Source: Parcubacteria group bacterium LiPW_30 (GTDB taxonomy: Bacteria; Patescibacteriota; Minisyncoccia; Phycocordibacterales; VMEP01). From it: a DNA stretch of 64,000 nt. Below are positions 1,116 to 60,938 of the stretch, in pieces (positions within the stretch are counted from its first letter, which is position 1; each line of letters begins with the position of its first letter). Location: contig VMEP01000001.1 of NCBI GenBank assembly GCA_007375595.1, positions 255,883-319,882 on the forward strand, in the 5' to 3' direction. The notes under the pieces are model-generated. The model was not told the DNA's origin and searched no databases. It saw only the letters and a list, made by a program, of their open reading frames with translations. The position numbers were made by a program, and so were the translations under genes.

Positions 1116-1212
1116 CCAAAATACCTCCAAAAAACATTGCGCAGTGCGGCGGCACGAGCATAGTAAATTTTCAGCAGAAAATTATACGTGTTTTTAGGAG
1201 GTATTTTAAAAA
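1116..1212. mobile_element. MITE-like small repeat element, short copy; 19-bp imperfect terminal inverted repeats
   Basis: aaaatacctccaaaaaaca ... tgtttttaggaggtatttt (1 mismatch); internal gcgcagtgcg and taaattttcagcagaaaattatacg core shared with the copy at 54941 and others. Confidence 0.6.
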
Positions 1213-2055: not shown

Positions 2056-2796
2056 ATGGAAAAGTCTAAAACACAAAAGAATAAGGTAGCTACGGCTAAA
2101 GAAAGCGTTAAGAAAGTACGCCCTCTAGTTGATATGAACGCAAAGGTCTACAACCAAGACGGGAAAGATGCTGGCACAGTCGAACTTCCAAAGACTGTTT
2201 TTGATGTTAAGTGGAATGATGATTTGGTTCATCAGGTTATGCTTTCAATGCAGTCTAACGCTCGCGCTGGTACAGCTCACACTAAAAACAGAGGAGATGT
2301 ACGCGGAGGTGGTAAGAAACCTTGGGCACAGAAAGGAACCGGTCGCGCACGACACGGCTCTTCAAGAAGCCCTATTTGGCGTGGTGGTGGTGTGACATTT
2401 GGTCCACGTGCTGAGAAAAACTATGATCGTAAGATAAACAAGAAGATGAAGGTTAAGGCGCTTTACACTGTTTTGTCGAGGAAATTTAGAGATGGTGAAA
2501 TTCTTTTTGTTGATACATTTAAACTAGCTTCTCCAAAAACAAAAGAAGCAAAAGTTATTTTTGAAAAAATAGTAGCAGGAGCAAAGCTCACAAAGACAAC
2601 AATGAAGAAGCGAAATACTGCATATCTTGCACTTGGAGCAAAAGATGTTCAGGTAGAAAAGAGTTTCCGCAATCTTCCAAATCTTGAGACAGGTAATGTT
2701 CGCGATTTGAACCTACTTTCTTTACTTAATCACCGTTACATTATAATTTCCGAACCAAAAGAAAGTATTTCGTTTTTGTCGGCAAAGATTAAATAA
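2056..2796 (+). CDS. rplD: 50S ribosomal protein L4
   Basis: Operon position and L4-like sequence (GTGRARHGS...). Confidence 0.85.
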   Translation: MEKSKTQKNKVATAKESVKKVRPLVDMNAKVYNQDGKDAGTVELPKTVFDVKWNDDLVHQVMLSMQSNARAGTAHTKNRGDVRGGGKKPWAQKGTGRARHGSSRSPIWRGGGVTFGPRAEKNYDRKINKKMKVKALYTVLSRKFRDGEILFVDTFKLASPKTKEAKVIFEKIVAGAKLTKTTMKKRNTAYLALGAKDVQVEKSFRNLPNLETGNVRDLNLLSLLNHRYIIISEPKESISFLSAKIK

Positions 2797-2801
2797 AATA
2801 T

Positions 2802-3158
2802 ATGGCACGAACAGCAAAAAAAGAAGAAGTTAAAGGAATCGCAGTTAAGGCGAGAGTCCAGCCTGTTGCTAAGCAGGCGAAAAATACTGGTGCATATACC
2901 CTTGTTCGCCCACACATCACAGAGAAAGCATCTTTCCTTACTTCTTCAAACGTATATACACTTGTGGTTCCAGTTGAAATGAATAAAAAAGAAATTTCAA
3001 AAGTTGTTGAGAAATTATACAAAGTTAAATCCGTTAAAATCACAACAGCTCCTATTAAGAAGAAGAATATTTTCAATCGCGGAAAGTGGGGCACAAAAGG
3101 AGGTGGGAAAAAAGCTTATGTGTTTTTGAAAAAGGGCGATTCAATTGATTTTGCATAA
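2802..3158 (+). CDS. rplW: 50S ribosomal protein L23
   Basis: Operon position, size, L23-like core. Confidence 0.8.
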   Translation: MARTAKKEEVKGIAVKARVQPVAKQAKNTGAYTLVRPHITEKASFLTSSNVYTLVVPVEMNKKEISKVVEKLYKVKSVKITTAPIKKKNIFNRGKWGTKGGGKKAYVFLKKGDSIDFA

Positions 3159-3168
3159 TTAAACTATT

Positions 3169-4011
3169 ATGAAAACCTACAAACCAACATCACCATCAAG
3201 AAGAAGCATGACAGGCGTAGTATATCGCAATGTTATCACCCATACAGAGCCATTAAAAGCTCTTACCAAGGGTCGCAAGCGAGATAGTGGACGCAACTCT
3301 GCTGGACGCATTACCACTCGCCATAAAGGAGGTGGGCACAAAAGACTCTATCGTGATATAGATTTTAAATATAATAAATTTGATATTCCAGCAAAGATTG
3401 CGAGCGTTGAATACGATCCAAACCGCACTGGTTTTATAGGTCTCGCTGTTTATAAAGACGGAGAGAAGCGTTATGTGCTTTTACCTAAATCTGTTGGAGT
3501 AGGTAACTCTTTTATCGTTAGTGAAACTGCATCGATAACCCCAGGAAATCGCATGCCACTCAAACAAGTTCCTGTTGGTACTTTTGTTTACAACGTTGAA
3601 CTAAAACCAAAGGGTGGTTCAAAAATTGCGCGCGGGGCTGGTGTTTATGTGGAAGTTGTTGCAAACAACGACGGTTACACGCACTTAAAAATGCCATCTA
3701 CAGAAGTTCGAAAAGTTTCTGATAAATGTTACGCATGTATCGGGCAGGTTTCAAACGAAGAACACGGACTTGTAAAAATAGGAAAAGCAGGACGTTCTCG
3801 ATGGATGGGTATTCGCCCAACAGTTCGTGGAACAGCTATGAACCCTGTTGATCACCCACACGGTGGAGGTGAAGGACGCCAAGGACGCGGTCTTCGACGT
3901 GCAAAGAGCAAGTGGGGCAAGCCAACAGGCAAGGGCCAAAAGACACGCGCACCTAAAAAATATTCAAACGTCTTTATTGTTTCAAGACGTAAAGTTGGAA
4001 AGAAACGATAA
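3169..4011 (+). CDS. rplB: 50S ribosomal protein L2
   Basis: Hallmark GRNSAGRITTRHKGGGHKRLYR and C-terminal Gly/Arg-rich tail. Confidence 0.95.
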   Translation: MKTYKPTSPSRRSMTGVVYRNVITHTEPLKALTKGRKRDSGRNSAGRITTRHKGGGHKRLYRDIDFKYNKFDIPAKIASVEYDPNRTGFIGLAVYKDGEKRYVLLPKSVGVGNSFIVSETASITPGNRMPLKQVPVGTFVYNVELKPKGGSKIARGAGVYVEVVANNDGYTHLKMPSTEVRKVSDKCYACIGQVSNEEHGLVKIGKAGRSRWMGIRPTVRGTAMNPVDHPHGGGEGRQGRGLRRAKSKWGKPTGKGQKTRAPKKYSNVFIVSRRKVGKKR

Positions 4012-15924: not shown

Positions 15925-18675
15925 ATGGTTTTAAACTTTAACGGAGAAAGTCATGAAAAATTTGTAAATCCCGAAGAGGAGATTAATTTTTTGCGTGAAC
16001 GTCTTGCAGAAAAGGAAAAAGAAGCCTCGTTTGGTAAAGAATCGGCGCCAGTTAATCATGAAAAAGAGGTTATTAGGGAATATTCGGAAAAGCCAGCTCG
16101 GGAAATTTTGCATCACGAAAAGGTGCTGGGGGAACAAGAGGTAGAGCGTATCGTTCTTGATTTGAAGCCAGAAGAGCACGATAAACAAATGGAGGAGCTT
16201 CTAGGACTTCTTATTGAAAAAGGTGCTCGTAACACTATTTCAGTTGTGGAGAAGATGGATAATCCCCACATAACTGACGACTTTCACAGAATACTTGTTC
16301 AATATGTTAAAAGCGTAGGAAAAGTTCCAGACTTAGAAAAAGATAAACAAGTTTGGAAGGCGGTACATATGCGTCTTTATGAAATCCTTCTTCCAGAAGG
16401 AGACGCAGAAAAGCAGGCAAAAAGCTTTAAAGAAATTGTTACGATAATGGAACAGTTTTACGCTGGGATGCTTTCTGTTTCCGATGGTCGAGATAATTTT
16501 CCAGGGAAGAATTATTTTACGCTTGAGATAGCTTTGTCTAATCAAAGCAGTGAAATAGTTTTTTACGCTTCTGTTCCTGATGATAAGAGTGGTTTGTTGG
16601 AAAAACAGTTACTCGGTTTATATAAAGACGCTCGAATTAGGGAGGTAAAGGATGATTATAATATTTTTAACGAAAAGGGAGCATCTTTGGGCGCCTACGG
16701 AGCTTTCACAAAAAGTCAGGTCTATCCAATAAAAACATATGCAGATTTTGAACATGATCCACTTCCGGTAATTCTTAACGTTTTTTCTAAACTTAAAAAT
16801 AAAGGAGAGGGGGCGGCAATTCAATTTTCAGTTTCTCCTGTTGGTGATTATTTCTTGAAAAGATACGGAAGAGTGCTTGACGATTTAAAACGAGGAGTGC
16901 CAAAAGATGAAGCAACAAATATTTCGCCAACTGTCGGACAAGAGGTGGGGAGGTTTGCCAAGGAACTCATTATGGGTGTTTCTGTGCCTAAAAAAATTGA
17001 TGGGAAAGAGGTTATTGATGAAGACGCGGTAAAATATGTTTCGGAAAAAATTAGTAGCACTATTGTTAATACAAACATTCGAGTAATTGCTTCCGCAGAG
17101 ACAACCTTGCGCGCTGAAGAAATTTTAGGTGAACTACAATCGGCTTTTAATCAATTCACAGATACTAAAGGAAATGGTGTTGAGTTTAAGTCGTTAAAAC
17201 GCCACGACCTGTTGAAGCTTTTTCAAGAATTTTCTTATAGGCTATTTTCTCAAGATCATTCTTTGCCGCTCAACCTAAAAGAACTTACCACAATGTTCCA
17301 TTTTCCAGAGCAGGTTTCGTCGGCGCCACAACTAAAACAAGCCCGTTCCACGACAGCGCCTGCACCGCTTGATGCTCCAACCTACGGGACACTTCTTGGA
17401 ATAAATAAACACCGTGGAGAAAATAAGGAAATTTTTATTACCGACGAAGATCGAATGCGTCACTTTTATGTTGTCGGACAAACAGGCACTGGTAAGACCG
17501 CAATCATGAAGAACATGATTATTCAGAATATTAAAGCTGGGCACGGGGTGTGCATGATAGACCCACACGGAACCGATATTGAGGATATTTTAGGAAATAT
17601 TCCACCTGAGAGAGAAAAAGACGTTATTTATTTTGACCCAGCTTACACAGAAAGAGTGATGGGTTTGAACATGCTGGAGTATGACCAAACTCGACCAGAG
17701 CGGAAAACTTTCGTGGTTAACGAGTTGATTTCGATTTTTAATAAATTATTTGATATGAAAGTTGCTGGCGGACCAGCATTTGAACAGTACTTCAGAAACT
17801 CTGCTCTTTTGGTTATGGAACACCCAGAATCTGGCAGCACTCTTCTTGAAATTGTGCGTGTTTTGGCTGACAAATCTTTTCGTGACATGAAATTGTCTTA
17901 TTGTAAGAATCCAGTGATTACGCAGTTTTGGCAAAACGCGATTAAGACAAGCGGGGAGCAGTCGCTCGCCAACTTTGTCCCTTATATCTCAAGCAAATTT
18001 GATCCATTTTTATCAAACGATATTATGCGTCCAGTTATTGCTCAAGAAAAATCATCATTTAATTTTAGGCAAATAATGGATGAGAAAAAAATACTCTTGG
18101 TTAATTTGTCTAAAGGGAGGTTGGGAGATTTAAACGCCAATTTAATAGGGCTTATCTTGGTTGGCAAGATTCTTATTGCCGCGCTTTCTCGTGTTGATAT
18201 TGTTGGCGGAAAACCTGCTGATTTTTATTTATACATTGATGAGTTCCAAAATATAACCACTGACTCAATTTCCACAATCCTTTCAGAAGCGCGAAAATAC
18301 AGATTATCTCTAAATGTTGCCCATCAATTTATTAAACAACTTGATGAAAAAACAAAGAACGCTATTTTCGGCAACGTTGGTTCAATGGCGGTGTTTCGTG
18401 TTGGTAGTGAGGATGCAGAATTTTTAGAGAAACAACTTGCGCCAGTTTTTTCTGCAAGAGATATTATGAATTTGGACAATTATAACGCTTACGTGAAAAT
18501 GCTTATGAATGGTCAACCAGCCAGAGCTTTTAACATTGAAACGATTTCGCCAAGGAAGGGGGACGTAAATACCGCTACAAGAATTAAAGAGGCGTCTTAC
18601 CAAAAATACGGAACCCCCCGTGTAGAAATTGAGGAGCATATCGCTCAAAAGTATCGCCAAACAGGAACAGTTTAG
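15925..18675 (+). CDS. Large soluble P-loop ATPase: C-terminal VirD4/TraD/TrwB-like (type IV coupling protein family) domain with an uncharacterised ~480-aa N-terminal region
   Basis: Walker A GQTGTGKT, Walker B LYIDEF, downstream RKYR...NVAHQFIKQL resembling the T4CP R..QS..QL motif; no TM segments. Confidence 0.5.
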   Translation: MVLNFNGESHEKFVNPEEEINFLRERLAEKEKEASFGKESAPVNHEKEVIREYSEKPAREILHHEKVLGEQEVERIVLDLKPEEHDKQMEELLGLLIEKGARNTISVVEKMDNPHITDDFHRILVQYVKSVGKVPDLEKDKQVWKAVHMRLYEILLPEGDAEKQAKSFKEIVTIMEQFYAGMLSVSDGRDNFPGKNYFTLEIALSNQSSEIVFYASVPDDKSGLLEKQLLGLYKDARIREVKDDYNIFNEKGASLGAYGAFTKSQVYPIKTYADFEHDPLPVILNVFSKLKNKGEGAAIQFSVSPVGDYFLKRYGRVLDDLKRGVPKDEATNISPTVGQEVGRFAKELIMGVSVPKKIDGKEVIDEDAVKYVSEKISSTIVNTNIRVIASAETTLRAEEILGELQSAFNQFTDTKGNGVEFKSLKRHDLLKLFQEFSYRLFSQDHSLPLNLKELTTMFHFPEQVSSAPQLKQARSTTAPAPLDAPTYGTLLGINKHRGENKEIFITDEDRMRHFYVVGQTGTGKTAIMKNMIIQNIKAGHGVCMIDPHGTDIEDILGNIPPEREKDVIYFDPAYTERVMGLNMLEYDQTRPERKTFVVNELISIFNKLFDMKVAGGPAFEQYFRNSALLVMEHPESGSTLLEIVRVLADKSFRDMKLSYCKNPVITQFWQNAIKTSGEQSLANFVPYISSKFDPFLSNDIMRPVIAQEKSSFNFRQIMDEKKILLVNLSKGRLGDLNANLIGLILVGKILIAALSRVDIVGGKPADFYLYIDEFQNITTDSISTILSEARKYRLSLNVAHQFIKQLDEKTKNAIFGNVGSMAVFRVGSEDAEFLEKQLAPVFSARDIMNLDNYNAYVKMLMNGQPARAFNIETISPRKGDVNTATRIKEASYQKYGTPRVEIEEHIAQKYRQTGTV

Positions 18676-23329: not shown

Positions 23330-23700
23330 GTTTTTTAATGTTCGCCCTTAAAATGCGCGTATAATTTTTTGCTAAAAATTTACTATACTCGCCTCGCCAG
23401 GCTCCGTAATGCATTTTAAGGGCGAACATAGAGATATTAAATACAAAAAACTTTGCTGAATTTTCGCTCTGCTCGATTCGTCAATCTGCGCAAGGTATTT
23501 TAGGGGTGTATGCAGGAAATAAAATACTTAGAAATGCACGTATAATTTTCTGCTGAAAATTTACTATACTCGGCTCGTCAGCCTCCGTCTCTCAATTGCT
23601 TCACTTATCGCAATTGAGCATCGCACTGCGCCCGCCTGCGCGTACACGCGGGCAGGCAATGTTTTTAAATACAAAAAATTGGATTTTTGAAGAAGGAGGA
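23330..23700 (-). mobile_element. Cluster of two partial MITE-family copies, minus orientation
   Basis: 23341-23430 bounded by ttcgcccttaaaatgc / gcattttaagggcgaa inverted repeats; 23536-23690 is the reverse complement of modules seen at 54961-55105 (ctcaattgcgataagtgaagcaattgagagacggaggctgacgagccgag). Confidence 0.55.
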
Positions 23701-31228: not shown

Positions 31229-31364
31229 CAAGGGAGATTGACTATAAATAACTTTTTGCCGTCGCAAAAAGTTTTGAGGATTAGTTCGATGTGGGAATTG
31301 GTCACAAATCTTTTGTTGCTACAAAAGTTCGCGACCCCGCCTCGCGCCGTCGCGCTCCGGCTTT

Positions 31365-31447
31365 CAATTCCCCACACAAGACATGCAGATGTCTTGCTCC
31401 ATCTCCACAAACAAAAATGGCTCACCGAAAGGTGAGCTCATTTTTGA
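31365..31447. repeat. Inverted partial copy of the tmRNA 3' end next to a bidirectional terminator hairpin
   Basis: ttcaattcccc...tccatctccacaa is the reverse complement of tmRNA 3' segments tgtggagatgg / ggggaattgaa; terminator ggctcaccgaaaggtgagcc. Confidence 0.5.
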
Positions 31448-31452
31448 TAATT

Positions 31453-31849
31453 GTGGAGATGGGGGGAATTGAACCCCCGTGCAGATGATTTTCAGGCGCG
31501 GGTCTACGAAGCTTAGTTTGTTTTTTTGTTTTCAGCACGAAAGGTTTAAAGCAAACAAAATCCTTTCACACTTATCCTCTATGTTTTTTAGTTAGTATCC
31601 CCGAGAAGTGAAATACGCTTAGTCCGGAAATATAACGCCCGTTCACATCTACCAGACTGCAATGTGACGAACGACCTTAGCTTATTTTATTAAGCGAAAG
31701 CGACGGCGAAGCTGTTTGCCTTAAAATAAGGAGAAACAGATAAGCCCTGTGCAGTTTTGTTTGCACTTATGTTTTGTGACGGTTTAACAAGTCATCACAG
31801 CTTGGCTTGCGCGCGCGAGAATGGTCAGCTGTCTAAGCAAATCATCCCC
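31453..31849 (-). ncRNA. ssrA: tmRNA (ssrA)
   Basis: Minus-strand 5' GGGGATG pairs with 3' CATCTCC; T-arm GGGGGTTCAATTCCCCC; candidate tag reading frame GCA AAC AGC TTC GCC GTC GCT TTC GCT TAA TAA; smpB adjacent. Confidence 0.75.
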
Positions 31850-39959: not shown

Positions 39960-40165
39960 AAATATCTTACTTGCTGTTGCTCGTAAAAATTTAAAACGGA
40001 GACGGTGGTTCGGCCACGAATATTTTACTCGCCGTCGCTCGTAAAATTTCTTGACCACGGCTCGCGACCTGTTCTGCTGAACAGGTGCCCGCTCCGCCTT
40101 TCGAATCCCACCGTCTTTACGAAAAATATAGTCACAAAATGCTTCACATTTTGTTCCTTGTTTTA
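39960..40165. repeat. Degenerate repeats derived from the tRNA-Ser 3' end
   Basis: aacggagacggtgg at 40002 and 40165; ttcgaatcccaccgtct at 40097 is an inverted copy of the T-arm/acceptor; direct repeats ttact[ct]gc[ct]gt[ct]gctcgtaaaa at 39969 and 40025. Confidence 0.5.
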
Positions 40166-40252
40166 CGGAGACGGTGGGATTCGAACCCACGGTCCCGATT
40201 AAGGGACGCCTCGTTAGCAGTGAGGTGCTTTCGACCACTCAGCCACGTCTCC
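40166..40252 (-). tRNA. tRNA-Ser (anticodon GCT) with long variable arm
   Basis: GGAGACGTGGCTGAGTGGTCGAAAGC...CTGCTAA loop...long extra arm...GGTTCGAATCC. Confidence 0.85.
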
Positions 40253-40340
40253 ATATATTATATAAACATTGCACGCTTTCTCTTTTTAATGCACCGCCGA
40301 TATGAGAAAACTTAACACATTTTTATTAGTTGAGCCAATG

Positions 40341-54940: not shown

Positions 54941-55127
54941 CCAAAATACCCCCAAAAAACATTGCGCAGTGCGACTGGCTCAATTGCGATAAGTGAAGCA
55001 ATTGAGAGACGGAGGCTGACGAGCCGAGTCGGGGTAGCGCAAATTTCTAGCAAGAAATTATGCGTGACCGAGCATAGTAAATTTTTAGCAAAAAATTATA
55101 CGCGTTTTTTGGGGGTATTTTAAAAAA
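54941..55127. mobile_element. MITE-like element, long copy; perfect 18-bp terminal inverted repeats
   Basis: ccaaaatacccccaaaaaac ... gttttttgggggtattttaa; internal modules shared with 1116, 23536-23690 (reverse complement), 59842-59937, 57740-57800. Confidence 0.65.
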
Positions 55128-57005: not shown

Positions 57006-57620
57006 ATGTTAGACCAAGAAACATTAACAAGACTAGGAAAGGGTGATGAAATTAATTATCTAAATCTAGAGTATTTTTTTAATTTAATATATCAAGGTTT
57101 AAACAATATTTATTTGCTTCTTTCCGGTGGTATTCCAGGTGTTTCATTTAGTGAAATTTTTTTGACCTTAAAAAATATTTTGCAAATATTGATTGTTTTT
57201 CTTATTGTGGGAATAGTTTATTGTTTTCTTCGTCTTCGTGAAATACGAAAAGAACAAAACGATAAATTAACTATCATTGAAATAAAAGATGATGGTGAGA
57301 AAATTAGAAATGAACGCTGGGCTATTGTTCAAGATCATTTGAATAGCGACAACGAAGCAGACTGGAAATTTGCAGTTATTGAGGCAGATAACATATTAGA
57401 TGAGCTCGTCAGAAAAATGGGATATGACGGAGAAGATTTAGGGGAACGTTTGAAGGCCGTTGAGCCATCCGATTTTCAAAGTTTACAAAGTGCGTGGGAG
57501 GCACATAAGGTACGTAATCAGATTGTTCATGAAAGTTCTGGTTTTAAGCTTACATACGCCGAAACAAAAAGAATAATTGGTTTATATGAACAGGTATTCC
57601 GTGAGTTTGAATATTTGTAA
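57006..57620 (+). CDS. Hypothetical membrane-anchored protein with C-terminal HEPN-like R-N-x-x-x-H motif (HKVRNQIVHE)
   Basis: TM helix ILQILIVFLIVGIVYCFL then soluble domain; motif-level inference. Confidence 0.4.
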   Translation: MLDQETLTRLGKGDEINYLNLEYFFNLIYQGLNNIYLLLSGGIPGVSFSEIFLTLKNILQILIVFLIVGIVYCFLRLREIRKEQNDKLTIIEIKDDGEKIRNERWAIVQDHLNSDNEADWKFAVIEADNILDELVRKMGYDGEDLGERLKAVEPSDFQSLQSAWEAHKVRNQIVHESSGFKLTYAETKRIIGLYEQVFREFEYL

Positions 57621-57655
57621 ATTTAGTTGAATTTTTTTGGTTTTGGGGTATTATT

Positions 57656-57685
57656 AGCACGAACGCCTGTAGAGACAGGCCTTTT
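57656..57685 (+). terminator. Terminator hairpin
   Basis: gcctgtagagacaggcctttt. Confidence 0.5.
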
Positions 57686-57719
57686 CAGTTAAAAACTGAG
57701 AAATTATATAGCGGGATGC

Positions 57720-57858
57720 GGGCTTATGGAGTAAGACCGGGCCGGAGCGTGGCGACGCGAGGCGGGGTCGCAGAATTTTTCAGCAGAAAAATATCTGTGA
57801 CGAAGTGGTACTCCTTGTGGTTTAACCACAAAGTTTGTTAAGGTAGTTGTTGAAAGAA
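57720..57858. mobile_element. MITE-family fragment inserted at the tRNA-Met 5' end, flanked by a direct repeat of the tRNA start
   Basis: Direct repeat aattata(t)agcgggatg at 57703 and 57856; internal ccggagcgtggcgacgcgaggcggggtcgcagaatttttcagcagaaaaatat matches family modules. Confidence 0.45.
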
Positions 57859-57863
57859 TTATA

Positions 57864-57932
57864 GCGGGATGGAGAAGTGGTATCTCGCAAGGCTCATAAC
57901 CTTGAGGCGCCCGTTCGAGTCGGGCTCCCGCA
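57864..57932 (+). tRNA. tRNA (anticodon CAT; Met or Ile-lysidine type), compact D-region
   Basis: Acceptor GCGGGAT/CTCCCGC, D-stem GAGA/TCTC, anticodon stem CAAGG/CCTTG, loop CTCATAA, T-loop TTCGAGT. Confidence 0.55.
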
Positions 57933-57993
57933 ACAAGTAAGCGTGGGTGACAGTCGCGAAGTTTCTAGTGTCACAGTACGATTATGATAGCTT

Positions 57994-58064
57994 GCCGATG
58001 TAGTTCAATGGTAGAACGAAGGACTCATAAGCCTTAGACAATGGTCCGATTCCATTCATCGGCA
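57994..58064 (+). tRNA. tRNA (anticodon CAT), second copy type
   Basis: Acceptor GCCGATG/CATCGGC, D-arm TAGTTCAATGGTAGAAC, loop CTCATAA, T-arm AATGG/CCATT. Confidence 0.55.
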
Positions 58065-58086
58065 CTCGGTTTAAAAAATCGAAAAT

Positions 58087-58162
58087 GCGGCCATAGCTCA
58101 ACTGGTTAGAGCACTCGCCTGTCACGCGAGAGGTTGTGGGTTCAAGTCCCATTGGCCGCGCA
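58087..58162 (+). tRNA. tRNA-Asp (anticodon GTC)
   Basis: Acceptor GCGGCCA/TGGCCGC, anticodon stem CTCGC/GCGAG, loop CTGTCAC, T-loop TTCAAGT. Confidence 0.85.
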
Positions 58163-58196
58163 AAATTAATCCCCGAAAGGGGATTTAATTTTGCGT
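58163..58196 (+). terminator. Terminator after the tRNA cluster
   Basis: aaattaatccccgaaaggggatttaatttt. Confidence 0.6.
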
Positions 58197-58209
58197 GACA
58201 AAGCAAGAC

Positions 58210-58325
58210 ACTTGAGTGCCTTGCGGTGGGACTTGAAGCCCGGAGCGATGTTTTTGTTTGAGCGTAGCGAAAGGCAAAAACCGCGAGGGCGGGCTGGGCG
58301 ATTTTTCAGTCAGGAAAAATACGAC
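58210..58325. repeat. GC-rich MITE-family fragment
   Basis: gggcgatttttcagtcaggaaaaatacgac resembles the aatttttcagcagaaaa core. Confidence 0.35.
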
Positions 58326-58462
58326 TAGCCAAGTCCAATTAGTATTTCTTTTTTGGTTTTTTTACAATTAAAATAACCCACTTGTCTTAAAGGTAAAATG
58401 GGTATTAAATTAAGCTAAATTTATCTCCCAGGAAGAGATTATGAAAATTACAATTACTCTAA

Positions 58463-59572
58463 ATGAAGATTTTTTACCATATACGAAACGCAGTAATTTC
58501 AATTATATTTTTAGGAAGTTTTTTTATTTTACCTTCGCTATCATATGCTGTATCAGGCACATGTTCATATCATGGAGGCGTTAACTGTTCGGCAGGATTT
58601 GATTGGGATGGAAGCGCTATTTGTAACGATGGATGGCGAGATAGTAGTGAACTATATTCTCAAGTCAATGGATGTTCTACTGATAGACGTCCTTTATGCA
58701 CGTCCGAAGAGGTTACCCAGCTTCAGAATAAATATGGTCTTCCTGAAATAAAACAAAGATGGGATAGTATTTCCCAAAAAATAGACGCTATTGCAAATAG
58801 CTCACAGTCATCCACTGACACCAATACTCTTCGGAATAATGCCATAGAATCAAGTAAACTTTATATAGAATTTTTACCCGTACAAGTTGAGTACCAAAAT
58901 GCATTCAACCACGCAATGGAAGATTGTTACGAACTAGGAGCTAAAGAAGAACAACAATTTAAGGATAATTTATACAAGCAACAGCAACAGAATCAAGATA
59001 ATTTGCGGAAGAAAGACCAAGAATTGGAAGATTACTTGTATAAGCTACTTCAATCTCAACAAACACAACCTACATCACAGCCAGCACAAACTAGTGGTGA
59101 TGTATGTGTAGAAAGAGGGGTTGCACATTCTCATTTAAAAAATTCTGCCTGTGAGTGTGATTCGGGGTATTACAACATTAACAATTCTTGTGTCCCATAC
59201 GATAACGCATGCAAGAGTCAGATGGGGTCTAGTGCTTACTATATTGGAAATAATCAATGCTCATGTTCAGCAGGTTATATTATGGAAAATAGTAAATGTG
59301 TTCCGCAGACTCTTCCTGTCAATAACAATAATGCAAATACATCGTCTGTGAATACGACTAACACTGTCTCACCAAAAGAAACTGTATTGCCATATAAACC
59401 TAAAGTAGAAGTTAAGAACCTTCCTGCCAAAACTAGTATTTCAAAATCAAAATCATTAGATAAACCACAAGCAACAACCACAAGCACGACAACTGCTCCA
59501 GTAATTCAAAAAAACACTAAACCAACAATTACTTCTAGAATTGGCTCGTGGCTCAAGAGTTTATTCAGATAA
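58463..59572 (+). CDS. Secreted Cys-repeat protein, paralog of 28059..29042
   Basis: Signal peptide; CECDSGYYNINNSCVP / CSCSAGYIMENSKCVP repeats, Thr/Asn-rich linker, C-terminal SWLKSLFR. Confidence 0.6.
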   Translation: MKIFYHIRNAVISIIFLGSFFILPSLSYAVSGTCSYHGGVNCSAGFDWDGSAICNDGWRDSSELYSQVNGCSTDRRPLCTSEEVTQLQNKYGLPEIKQRWDSISQKIDAIANSSQSSTDTNTLRNNAIESSKLYIEFLPVQVEYQNAFNHAMEDCYELGAKEEQQFKDNLYKQQQQNQDNLRKKDQELEDYLYKLLQSQQTQPTSQPAQTSGDVCVERGVAHSHLKNSACECDSGYYNINNSCVPYDNACKSQMGSSAYYIGNNQCSCSAGYIMENSKCVPQTLPVNNNNANTSSVNTTNTVSPKETVLPYKPKVEVKNLPAKTSISKSKSLDKPQATTTSTTTAPVIQKNTKPTITSRIGSWLKSLFR

Positions 59573-59682
59573 AGTTAGTCAGTTGAAGCTTTGGAATGTA
59601 AATACTCGTATCATTTATTCTTTCAAAACTGGTTCTGGTGTCGTTCAGTAAGTCGCGCAAAGTTAATCCCGTTCGCTTTGAG

Positions 59683-59717
59683 AAAACGCAGAAATAGATT
59701 ACTATTTCTGCGTGTTT
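59683..59717 (+). terminator. Rho-independent terminator
   Basis: aaaacgcagaaatagattactatttctgcgtgttt. Confidence 0.65.
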
Positions 59718-59722
59718 AGTTT

Positions 59723-59795
59723 GCCGTTGTAGCTCAGTTGGTAGAGCACGTCATTGGTAATGACGAGGTCTCCGGTTCAATCCCGGACAACGGCT
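59723..59795 (+). tRNA. tRNA-Thr (anticodon GGT)
   Basis: Acceptor GCCGTTG/CAACGGC, anticodon stem CGTCA/TGACG, loop TTGGTAA, T-loop TTCAATC. Confidence 0.85.
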
Positions 59796-59960
59796 CTGGG
59801 TTGTAACCAGTAAATAATTTTACTGGTGTACGGGATTGAAAGCCGGAGGCAGACGTGCCGAGGCGGGGTAGCGCAACCGGAGGCAGACGTGCCGAGGCGG
59901 GGTAGCGCAAAAATTTAGCAAAATTTTATGCGTGACCAATCCCGGACAACGGCTCTGGGT
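59779..59960. mobile_element. 137-bp MITE-family insert bounded by a 23-bp direct repeat of the tRNA-Thr 3' end
   Basis: aatcccggacaacggctctgggt at 59779-59801 and 59938-59960; insert has tandem 34-bp repeat ccggaggcagacgtgccgaggcggggtagcgcaa x2 plus aaatttagcaaaattttatgcgtgacc. Confidence 0.6.
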
Positions 59961-59972
59961 ATATAGGAATAT

Positions 59973-60048
59973 GCCACCTTAGCTCAGTTGGTAGAGCGAC
60001 CCCTTCGTAAGGGGTAGGTCCCCAGTTCGATTCTGGGAGGTGGCTCCA
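59973..60048 (+). tRNA. tRNA-Thr (anticodon CGT), CCA encoded
   Basis: Acceptor GCCACCT/AGGTGGC, anticodon stem ACCCC/GGGGT, loop TTCGTAA, T-loop TTCGATT. Confidence 0.85.
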
Positions 60049-60050
60049 AA

Positions 60051-60938
60051 ATGAAAGATAAACAGTCTATAGAAAAACGTATAGCAGAAATCGAAGCCCA
60101 AATGGCGGGGGCGGATTTTTGGAATGATAAGGTCACAGCGCAAGCAATATTAAAAGAATTTCAGCAATTAAAAAACGACCTTGAGGGCGCGTCTCGATAC
60201 GACAAGGGAAACGCTGTGATGACTATTTTCTCTGGGGCTGGTGGCGATGATTCTGAAGATTTTTCACGGATGCTTCTTAATATGTATGAAAAGTTTTTTG
60301 CGAAAAAAGGTTGGACCTCGCACGTTGTGCATGAAAATAAAAATGATTTAGGGGGATATCGTAATATCACAATCGAAATTAGTGGGAAAAACGCATATGG
60401 TTTGTTAAAAAATGAATCCGGTGTTCACAGGCTTGTTCGTATTTCTCCTTTTAATGCAAAAAAACTTCGCCACACCTCATTTTCAATGGTTGAAGTTATT
60501 CCAGATTTTGAAGAGGGAGATGAAAGTGATGTTCAGATTGCACCAGAAGACGTAAGGGTTGAATTTGCACGCTCGTCTGGTCCTGGTGGGCAAAACGTCA
60601 ATAAAAGAGAGACCGCAGTAAGAGTGGTGTATTTGGCGACAAATATTGCGGTTCACGCTGAGACGGAGCGTTCTCAAGAGCAGAACCGCGCGCGGGCTAT
60701 GCAGATTTTGCGAGGGAAATTATTTAAGAAAATGGAAGATGAGCGAAAGTCTAGAGAAAGTGGAATGTATGTTTCTAAGACAACTGAGGTTGAATGGGGT
60801 AATCAAATTCGCTCATACGTTTTGCATCCCTATAAAATGGTTAAGGACCACAGAACTGGTGTAGAAACAGGGGACGTGGACGGAGTTTTGGAAGAAGGAA
60901 AATTGGAGGAGTTTATTGAAGCAGAAAAAGGACTCTAG
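60051..60938 (+). CDS. prfB: Peptide chain release factor 2, short form (295 aa) with no programmed-frameshift leader
   Basis: SPF tripeptide (RISPFNAKKLRHTSF) and GGQ (SGPGGQNVNK); ATG 3 nt after the tRNA-Thr CCA end. Confidence 0.85.
   Translation: MKDKQSIEKRIAEIEAQMAGADFWNDKVTAQAILKEFQQLKNDLEGASRYDKGNAVMTIFSGAGGDDSEDFSRMLLNMYEKFFAKKGWTSHVVHENKNDLGGYRNITIEISGKNAYGLLKNESGVHRLVRISPFNAKKLRHTSFSMVEVIPDFEEGDESDVQIAPEDVRVEFARSSGPGGQNVNKRETAVRVVYLATNIAVHAETERSQEQNRARAMQILRGKLFKKMEDERKSRESGMYVSKTTEVEWGNQIRSYVLHPYKMVKDHRTGVETGDVDGVLEEGKLEEFIEAEKGL

Follow-up and report, generated by a model that had tools for sequence, protein, structure and literature searches.

Small folded cassettes that end in copied tRNA 3′ ends in Parcubacteria and related bacteria

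A second tRNA-Thr end closes a small non-coding cassette

In the genome of the Parcubacteria group bacterium LiPW_30, the gene for transfer RNA (tRNA) Thr(GGT) is followed by a 136-bp insert and a second copy of its own 3′ end. The insert and this second end together make up a single member of a family of folded cassettes, small and non-coding, that lie directly behind tRNA and transfer-messenger RNA genes. All coordinates given below are those of the window, the whole 64-kb stretch of DNA that was analysed, in which the tRNA and transfer-messenger RNA (tmRNA) genes were placed by ARAGORN and Rfam. A first-pass annotation of the window had recorded a 23-bp repeat of the tRNA-Thr end and a 34-bp tandem duplication between its copies, and both proved to be real and exact. 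The sequence AATCCCGGACAACGGCTCTGGGT occurs exactly twice in the window (59779–59801 and 59938–59960), with no occurrence expected from 100 shuffles. With the preceding C it becomes a 24-nt exact repeat (59778–59801 and 59937–59960), with a spacing of 159 nt from start to start and 135 nt between the copies. The left copy is the T-loop-to-3′-end segment of tRNA-Thr(GGT), from C56 to the discriminator and six further nucleotides.

All features of this locus are on the + strand. The tRNA-Thr(GGT) gene (59723–59796, found by ARAGORN and by Rfam with a tRNA score of 70.4 bits) is intact and does not encode the CCA. The cassette begins with a 5′ arm in two parts. The first, GGGTTGT (59798–59804), complements the acceptor 3′ strand (ACAACGG region), as seen in the sequence and in the minimum-free-energy fold. 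The second, GTACGGGATTGAA (59828–59840; inverted repeat I12 and model alignment), complements T54–C66 of the tRNA with one mismatch. Between them, at the acceptor/T-stem boundary of the arm, the sequence and the fold place the hairpin H1 (ACCAGTAAA/TTTACTGGT, 59806–59827), which has the same position in 24 other loci. The conserved three-way-junction core (59841–59937, delimited by a covariance model and by covariation) consists of P2 (GCC-G-GA-hairpin-GA-GGC), GG and P3 (59901–59937), the latter ending with GTGACC. The covariance-model match to the cassette extends from 59826 to 59949 (77.8 bits, E 4e-22). The right copy of the tRNA-Thr end (59937–59960; repeat search and fold) is the 3′ arm and is predicted to pair with the 5′ arm. 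The next gene is tRNA-Thr(CGT) (59973–60048, ARAGORN). No terminator-like site was seen between the two tRNA-Thr genes in a sequence scan, so the cassette and tRNA-Thr(CGT) are likely to be co-transcribed.

The 34-bp tandem duplication (59843–59876 and 59877–59910; 59843–59910 in the repeat search) covers P2 and the 5′ half of P3, so that P2 is doubled in this core. It is missing from the orthologous Thr cassettes of two relatives, L242 and L251 (L numbers designate loci fetched from genomes). Each of these has a single core, which makes the duplication specific to the window strain, where it may be a recent slip.

A conserved core with compensatory base-pair changes

The layout of the cassettes, starting from the tRNA, is often a terminator-like hairpin, then an anti-acceptor segment, often H1, an anti-T segment, the core and a sense copy of the tRNA end. 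Four parts can be distinguished: an optional hairpin, a 5′ arm complementary to the tRNA, a conserved three-way-junction core and the copied tRNA end. The anti-T segment complements the 3′ strand of the T-stem and the entire T-loop, and ends with ...TTGAA or ...TTCGAA. The core reads GAAAG-CCGGAG-hairpin-CGAGGCGGGG-TCGCG-long hairpin-CGTGACC, and the sense copy runs from T-loop position 56/57 of the tRNA to its 3′ end. A consensus three-way junction was drawn from 33 cores of identical length: GAAA, P2 (GCC, a bulged G, GA, a 4-bp hairpin, GA, GGC), GG, and P3 (GGTCGCG ... CGTGACC), which continues directly into the 3′ arm.

Covariation was measured in a 26-sequence alignment that included two copies from the window, with column shuffles and slid partners as controls. 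Paired cells amounted to 88.8%, compared to 71% in the column shuffles, and both sides had changed in 25 of 34 pairs. The covariation score was 0.495 against 0.162 in shuffled alignments (0 of 500 reached it) and 0.07–0.12 with slid partners, compensatory changes thus exceeding both controls, as in structured RNAs. The P2 hairpin was 100% paired, with compensatory changes in three of four pairs, and P3 was 98% paired, with compensatory changes in 12 of 15. One pair of the core is an invariant G·U. The G·U/G·T pairs indicate that it is the tRNA-sense strand which folds. In a variant of the 5′ arm that recurs (...GATGAGAAAG in place of ...GATTCGAAAG), a tandem G·A stands opposite G57–A58 of the 3′ arm.

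The predicted folds were much more stable than those of shuffled sequences, with z = −4.2 for the Thr unit and z = −7.0 for a unit located behind the tmRNA. Both contain an acceptor-like stem, H1, a T-like stem, P2 and P3. In this model the 3′ arm, which is the duplicated tRNA end, and the complementary 5′ arm form the helix that closes the three-way junction. The base and the tetraloop of H1 are conserved behind different tRNAs. The core was compared by eye with the K-turn, the hammerhead, twister and group II domain 5; in the P2 loop there is only a 1-nt bulge before the tandem G·A, and no ribozyme consensus fits.

The two arms follow the adjacent tRNA

The 5′ arm tracks the tRNA that it adjoins. 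Its T-stem part pairs 5/5 with its own tRNA in 33% of the loci, compared to 5% for mismatched controls, and the anti-acceptor segment pairs 7/7 in 28% of the loci, compared to 4%, a match that is significant though often imperfect. Among the loci with a good anti-acceptor segment, the gap between this segment and the anti-T segment was 0 nt in eight loci and 24–27 nt in 24. The 24–27-nt gap is H1, sited exactly on the acceptor/T boundary, which would give the closing helix the shape of a tRNA acceptor–T stack with one side arm. At G·U pairs of the tRNA, the arm usually has the Watson–Crick complement of the 3′ strand (29 versus 9). We considered whether a duplicated tRNA, a tandem pseudogene with an insert in the T-loop, could have supplied the 5′ arm as its 5′ half, and rejected this on three grounds: the arm is the reverse complement of non-palindromic T-loops (ATTTGAA for TTCAAAT in L140), it has Watson–Crick partners at the G·U positions of the tRNA, and H1 is conserved across different tRNAs.

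The junction on the right side, GTGAC(C)|position 57, is fixed. The 3′ arm stops, in most loci, no more than 2 nt from the ARAGORN gene end, itself one base beyond the discriminator. The arm is 14–36 nt longer in L125, L153, L212, L223 and L232, where it takes in the terminator of the tRNA. The length of the repeat from its fixed start at 56/57 ranged from 17 to 56 nt in 48 other loci. CCA was present on the 3′ arm and not on the gene copy in five loci, and the converse was seen in none. Most of the sampled tRNA genes (48 loci among L121–L240) end with N73-C-A and not with CCA. A putative tRNA-like character of the cassettes would rest on the acceptor/T geometry of many copies and on this CCA bias of the 3′ arm; the arms are often imperfect. 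When the real tRNA end and the right copy differ, neither is clearly the better partner of the 5′ arm (13 cases against 16, with five ties). In L136, both the 3′ and the 5′ arm resemble another allele of tRNA-Arg, and the unit therefore appears to carry its own arm.

Other cassettes and tRNA-distant cores in the window

Cassettes were found at five of the nine tRNA or tmRNA genes of the window. The same layout is present behind tRNA-Thr, tRNA-Asp, the tmRNA and tRNA-Ser(GCT), and five window copies can be aligned. There is no cassette in the DNA downstream of the tRNA-Ala and tRNA-Ile genes, which are also in the window.

The tRNA-Asp gene (58087–58161; ARAGORN and Rfam) is followed on the + strand by a cassette at 58162–58345, delimited by the inverted repeat I10 and by a covariance-model match at 58223–58342. 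It is composed of a terminator-like hairpin lying between the tRNA and the rest of the unit, an anti-acceptor segment, H1, TGGGACTTGAA (anti-T-arm), a core with a long first hairpin, and the degenerate copy AAGTCCAATTAG. Behind the tmRNA (31453–31849, − strand), the cassette at 31285–31452 (−), with a covariance-model score of 94.3 bits, has a terminator hairpin, TGTGGAGATGG (anti-acceptor), H1, GTGGGGAATTGAA (anti-T-arm), the core and the degenerate copy AATTCCCACATC. The cassette of tRNA-Ser(GCT) (39995–40164, − strand, 51.2 bits; gene at 40165–40253, −) shows ACGGTGGGATTCGAA (anti-T-arm), a variant core GGCGGAG...CGAGCCGTGG...GTGGCC and the copy GAACCACCGTCTCCG.

A variant cassette lies upstream of the first of two tRNA-Met genes (57863–57934 and 57994–58065; ARAGORN and Rfam), at 57702–57871 on the + strand (63.9 bits). 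The insert was said to be flanked by a duplication of the first 16–17 nt of the gene and its upstream context. A repeat does flank it, and its exact part is the 12-nt TATAGCGGGATG (57707–57718 and 57860–57871); when one indel is allowed it reaches about 15–16 nt (57702–57718/57857–57871). Only the first 9 nt of the gene are included, the rest being six or seven bases of the leader. The order here is leader and tRNA nucleotides 1–9, a hairpin, the core (57728–57814) ending with GTGAC, the D-arm-like GAAGTGGTACTCC, a spacer, and the repeated leader with nucleotides 1–9. A promoter-like site is present upstream of the leader.

The covariance model built from the cassette core found nine copies in the window, four of which do not adjoin a tRNA. 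One of these (55002–55071, +) lies within a repeat closed by AAAATACCCCCAAAAAAC/GTTTTTTGGGGGTATTTT, and the others are at 23343–23424 (−), 23530–23605 (−) and 1124–1201 (+). Their closing inverted repeats are unrelated to tRNAs (for example, GTTCGCCCTTAAAATGC/GCATTTTAAGGGCGAAC). The first-pass annotation had described the Thr insert as built from modules of the MITE (miniature inverted-repeat transposable element) type, and these copies bear out its modular nature. The tRNA-distant cores share a further module, AACATTGCGCAGTGCG with the hairpin CTCAATTGCGATAAGTGAAGCAATTGAGAG. The ligA–gatC spacer, which holds one of them, measures about 880 bp in the window and 20–45 bp in relatives.

Distribution across genomes

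One genome per species was scanned with the 21-nt core pattern GAAAGCCGGAG-N(6–36)-CGAGGCGGGG. The pattern was found at at least 120 loci, mostly in metagenome-assembled genomes of Patescibacteria together with several Elusimicrobiota. The groups among the matches listed include Saccharibacteria, Paceibacterota/Parcubacteria, Zambryskibacteria, Yonathbacteria, Kaiserbacteria, Falkowbacteria and WWE3. A minority of matches, with a high GC content and located inside genes of other phyla, are by their appearance probably due to chance. In 93 of the 123 matches listed, the core has a tRNA or tmRNA of the same strand ending less than 300 nt upstream of it; for all of these except ten the distance is less than 100 nt. 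At least 16 identities were represented among the matches listed: Ser, Leu, Arg, Gly, Met, Val, Glu, Tyr, Trp, Lys, Cys, Ala, Phe, Asn, Asp and tmRNA. The covariance model, which is independent of the pattern, detected 23 further copies in the same loci, of which about 16 lie 34–200 nt 3′ of a tRNA of the same strand. Tandem arrays with differing cores occur in other phyla as well (L157, L238, L202 and L209).

The specific core pattern had no match in 2.9 million viral contigs. A loose version gave chance matches only, in GC-rich phages. The first-pass annotation had suggested the decay of larger integrated elements as one origin of the inserts. This possibility is not supported, in view of the recurrence of the same core of about 66 nt, with compensatory changes, at some 90 loci and at least 16 kinds of tRNA in several phyla, and of the empty result in the viral contigs.

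Variation between close strains

Orthologous loci of relatives were fetched through RF2 and SmpB. The insert upstream of tRNA-Met is precisely missing from L251 (RF2 89% identical), in which both flanks are collinear. This clean empty site supports the view that the duplications are associated with insertions and are not part of a fixed tRNA array or leader. The same insert is present in L242 (RF2 98% identical) and expanded in L244 (RF2 98% identical). In L244, tRNA-Thr(GGT) has no cassette and the DNA downstream is unrelated; as this flank is not collinear, the Thr comparison gives an absence and not a clean empty site. In place of the Thr cassette, L244 has a 115-aa cysteine-rich open reading frame (ORF) between two tRNA-Thr genes (3586–3933), whose similarity to the HNH region of IscB is faint (E 4.5e-4) and far below the cut-off. 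Another core subtype stands behind tRNA-Asp in the same strain.

The P2 hairpins of the Thr cassettes in the window, L242 and L251 differ by fully compensatory changes (GGCAGACGTGCC, GCGTGACGACGC and GCGCGACGGCGC). The tRNA-Thr(GGT) itself differs in its T-stem, which is TCCGG/CCGGA in the window (59770–59790) and AGCAG/CTGCT in L242 (3750–3770). With a difference at all five pairs, the remainder of the tRNA identical and RF2 98% identical, this implies a replacement of the segment and not point mutations. In L242, the 3′ arm follows the altered T-stem exactly and the 5′ arm partly. At the tmRNA, strains with SmpB 97–100% identical have either one unit or two, the subtypes being different, and the arrays differ even among strains with identical SmpB. 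A degenerate distal copy, ...CCCCCATC(G/A)AAC, is common to three strains, which suggests an exchange of units between the two copies of the tRNA end. Between strains whose housekeeping proteins are 97–100% identical, cassettes are acquired and lost, multiply in tandem and are replaced by other core subtypes. The cassette repeats appear to break assemblies at tRNA loci. The contig of L241 (k139_333175, 364 kb), whose RF2 gene is identical, begins some 195 bp upstream of prfB, within the tRNA-Thr/cassette region.

This variation bears on a reading in which the cassettes are not mobile. They would be functional tRNA-like small RNAs or cis processing elements, transcribed together with the tRNA or after it and folded into the shape of a tRNA, with ends matured by RNase P, RNase Z and the CCA-adding enzyme and a core that binds a conserved protein; alternatively, the antisense arm would pair with the tRNA 3′ end. 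Their spread would be due to duplication, gene conversion and homologous exchange. The core that is nearly invariant across phyla, the compensatory changes between copies of one genome, the position of H1 exactly at the acceptor/T boundary, the 3′ arm that stops near the discriminator and its CCA bias are all consistent with such a role, as is the location of the Thr and Met copies within tRNA transcription units. The first hairpin, swapped between otherwise near-identical orthologous cassettes, suggests gene conversion. However, strains that share an identical SmpB or have RF2 98% identical differ in which cassettes they have, in how many and of what subtype, and about half of the window's tRNAs do without a cassette. 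Orphan units with no tRNA (L178 and L122) and orphan or degenerate copies (L226) exist, and identity elements are not kept, an Ala copy lacking G3·U70, for instance. At gathering scores, Rfam detected only tRNAs and the tmRNA in the whole window and no cassette family, and at E values up to 10 over 57500–60200 it gave only tRNAs and chance-level matches. We regard this reading as possible and serious, though unlikely.

Recombinases and neighbouring genes

No integrase, transposase or reverse transcriptase was found by Pfam among 40 ORFs of the window, which are housekeeping, pilus and hypothetical genes, and no recombinase is encoded in the neighbouring genes of the fetched loci that were inspected. 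The units themselves contain no ORF, and no gene-bearing version of the cassette is present among the at least 120 genome loci. The inserts are therefore non-coding, as first noted, and any mobilisation must take place in trans.

The repeat from the T-loop to the tRNA 3′ end had at first been taken for the att footprint of site-specific integration, and a search for an integrase had been suggested. A tyrosine integrase specific for the T-loop and encoded elsewhere could move the cassettes as cis-mobilisable mini-elements that bring a replacement tRNA 3′ end, the core being the arm-type or accessory region of attP. This position is the usual one for an integrase identity block and the tmRNA is also a target. 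The tandem arrays resemble successive integrations, cassettes are swapped between the two copies of the tRNA end, and in L125, L153, L223 and L232 the identity block extends 25–36 nt beyond the tRNA, as expected of attP/attB. We know of no integrase family that retargets across many tRNA identities with matched arms, and here one core with matched arms serves at least 16. Covariation with strand-specific G·U, tandem G·A variants and an invariant G·U would not be expected of protein-binding sites in duplex DNA. Related cores far from tRNAs are closed by unrelated inverted repeats, and in L136 the foreign allele is on the right copy and not on the left. A plain att footprint leaves the host-matched complementary arm, the strand-specific fold and the variable 3′ limit of the repeat unaccounted for. 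With its many targets, this fold, and neither an integrase (window ORFs and adjoining inspected loci) nor a phage copy (viral contigs) found, the integrase reading is disfavoured and we hold it to be doubtful.

The variable length of the repeat from its fixed start, the CCA on only some 3′ arms and the tRNA-like ends recall a retroelement of the short interspersed nuclear element (SINE) type. A processed tRNA-like RNA would be reverse-transcribed in trans, primed through its 3′ arm where the cognate tRNA gene is nicked in the T-loop, and would leave a target duplication of variable length. A reverse transcriptase is indeed present beside the tmRNA array of a sister strain: in L257 (3816–5414, −), and also in L259 and L262, a gene identified by PADLOC as RT-Protease_XI (E 7e-162) is convergent with the cassette array at the tmRNA. 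We rejected it as a partner of the cassettes, as it is an ordinary type XI retron RT-protease, a strain-specific defence gene; SmpB of L257, L259 and L262 is identical to that of the window, and the gene is missing from the window and from L258. In addition, group II introns were reported to be absent from Patescibacteria in a survey of 95 complete genomes (PMC13011429). A target duplication predicts that the right copy matches the recipient tRNA, which L136 contradicts, and the re-specification of the antisense arm is not accounted for. A retroelement of this kind seems to us very unlikely.

Another candidate mobiliser was a RAYT, as a Y1 transposase lies near prfB in a relative. It was rejected, having REPs of its own and no cassettes nearby. 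The Y1_Tnp gene in L254–L256 is flanked by CAAAGGGTTCCCCTT repeats, where the cassette model has no match. In L254 (5540–6400) this RAYT-like transposase sits between its REP repeats (CAAAGGGTTCCCCTTTG/TTGG), a second repeat system of the lineage that is unrelated to the cassettes.

Some other genes near these loci may be mentioned. L244 has a 79-aa GIY-YIG ORF (2700–3006) between a 5′ fragment of tRNA-Asp and the intact tRNA-Asp. The fragment consists of nucleotides 1–9, a GC-rich hairpin and nucleotides 10–21, the break after nucleotide 9 being at the position of the Met insert. A similar 89-aa GIY-YIG ORF lies directly behind smpB in L265 (2949–3218). In the window, a 916-aa ORF (15925–18675) with HerA/DUF87, TraG-D_C and TrwB-like domains, resembling a coupling-protein ATPase, is located between a ribosomal-protein cluster and ndk.

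A model for the cassettes

We favour, tentatively and with slightly less than even confidence, the reading in which the cassette is a trans-mobilised unit, folded as a single strand and targeted to tRNA 3′ ends. In this model the unit would move as folded RNA or single-stranded DNA with the help of an enzyme encoded elsewhere. It would find a tRNA 3′ end by pairing through its complementary arm, seeded on the universal sequence of the T-loop, and both of its ends would be set by the same tRNA-end sequence. This last feature implies that the tRNA stays intact, that excision is scarless, that arrays can grow and that cassettes can be exchanged. The Thr and Met units would be co-transcribed with their tRNA operon and probably cut out by tRNA-processing enzymes.

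Several points weigh against this model. Movement of the units is deduced solely from presence or absence and from the differences between arrays, and the model gives no account of how the arm becomes matched to a new tRNA. The copies within one genome are not near-identical and differ by compensatory changes, a divergence that is more usual for functional RNAs under selection than for transposons after a recent burst. Frequently, a terminator-like hairpin separates the tRNA from the cassette. The complementarity of the 5′ arm to its own tRNA is imperfect in many copies. In L236, L240 and L172 the right copy has decayed and the 5′ arm still matches the tRNA perfectly, so that pairing with the real tRNA end fits these loci as well as the closing helix does. 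The scan sample is also biased towards tRNA-linked copies, because the pattern includes GAAAG, the complement of the T-loop TTC. The weaknesses concerning movement, re-specification of the arm and compensatory divergence are the reason for which the three other readings were kept.

A bolder version, which we think improbable though worth stating, makes the cassettes protein-less, guide-bearing mobile elements specific to ultra-small bacteria. A junction RNA or single-stranded DNA with a re-writable arm would home to a tRNA gene and restore the target sequence at its 3′ end. To excise and insert, it would borrow the tRNA-processing or repair enzymes of the host, or use a catalysis of its own at GTGACC|G. 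It is a real possibility that the cassettes represent a new kind of element that bears a guide, or else a new RNA that mimics tRNA. The junction core shared across phyla and the arm that tracks the adjacent tRNA suggest one of two novelties: an RNA mimic of tRNA whose protein partner is conserved, or a targeting of tRNA genes guided by nucleic acid. Genomes of the candidate phyla radiation are thought to be stripped of mobile DNA. If five of nine tRNA or tmRNA genes, as in the window, is a guide, the family may occupy a large share of the tRNA genes of such genomes, where it would be a major overlooked part of the intergenic space, and it provides a ready marker of strain-level variation.

Comparison with known systems

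A description of the cassette family was not found in the full-text literature searched, in which the nearest entries were the group I introns in anticodon loops of Patescibacteria tRNAs and the integrase-borne tRNA islands. The latter, such as P4-type islands, the tycheposons of Prochlorococcus (integrase-borne islands that target tRNAs; bioRxiv 10.1101/2020.12.28.424599) and the cis-mobilisable elements related to integrative and conjugative elements (ICEs) of streptococci, lie like the cassettes 3′ of tRNA or tmRNA genes between full and partial copies of the tRNA. They also form tandem arrays by successive arrival and are polymorphic between strains. However, these islands are kilobases long, carry a tyrosine recombinase and use one or a few tRNAs per lineage, whereas the cassettes measure about 110–190 nt, have no gene, and possess a folded core and an arm that matches at least 16 tRNA identities. 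The flanking tRNA-end repeats are those of an integrative element; a cognate recombinase with one fixed target was seen neither in the window nor in the fetched loci, and gene-bearing relatives (phage or ICE) numbered zero in viral contigs and in genome loci.

The pneumococcal BOX, enterobacterial ERIC and Neisseria Correia elements, and the REP/REPIN sequences with their RAYT, are like the cassettes short, non-coding, multicopy, modular and folded into hairpins, and away from tRNAs some cassette copies are closed by terminal inverted repeats in the manner of MITEs. MITEs have conserved terminal repeats and a variable interior. The cassettes have an interior conserved across phyla, a closing helix that depends on the site, no conserved termini and a repeat of 17–56 nt instead of a fixed length, the opposite of a transposase-derived MITE. 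REP families are species-specific, and the repeats around the Y1_Tnp gene of L254–L256, which are those of the RAYT of the relative, are unrelated to the cassettes. None of the BOX, ERIC, Correia and REP families duplicates a tRNA end.

The IS200/IS605 elements, which move by ‘peel and paste’, and their gene-less derivatives have strand-specific folded ends, as do the cassettes. IS608 inserts 3′ of a target recognised by an internal base-pairing guide, is excised without a scar and produces no classical target duplication. Its guide is 4 nt long, whereas the arm of the cassettes reaches about 20 nt and their 3′ end repeats the target. Unlike in IS200/IS605, no TnpA gene is linked to the cassettes, and the likeness is a mechanistic analogy only. 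Integron attC sites differ in that the cassettes have no RYYYAAC/GTTRRRY at their ends and contain no ORFs, and no integrase was found. Group I and II introns and self-cleaving ribozymes differ too, as no Rfam core matches and the cassette is too small.

Among tRNA-like RNAs, the Y RNAs (YrlA), the tRNA-like domain of tmRNA and mascRNA build an acceptor/T-like helix from their 5′ and 3′ ends around a large insertion, as is predicted for the cassettes, and in both recognition by tRNA-processing enzymes is predicted. The base of P3 (GGUCGCG/CGUGACC) loosely recalls, as a lead only, the Ro-binding helix of Y RNAs. Unlike Y RNA, the cassettes have no Rfam match at E values up to 10 and exist in many copies per genome, each mimicking a different adjacent tRNA. 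Ty3 and the Dictyostelium TRE elements, tRNA-gene-targeted retrotransposons from compact genomes of eukaryotes, follow the same ‘safe haven’ logic, with insertion beside the tRNA genes of a gene-dense genome; they code for proteins and are targeted through Pol III factors, with no sequence complementarity to the tRNA. The defining features of the known families, where they could be tested, are not those of the cassettes, and we file the latter among the tRNA-associated non-autonomous elements.

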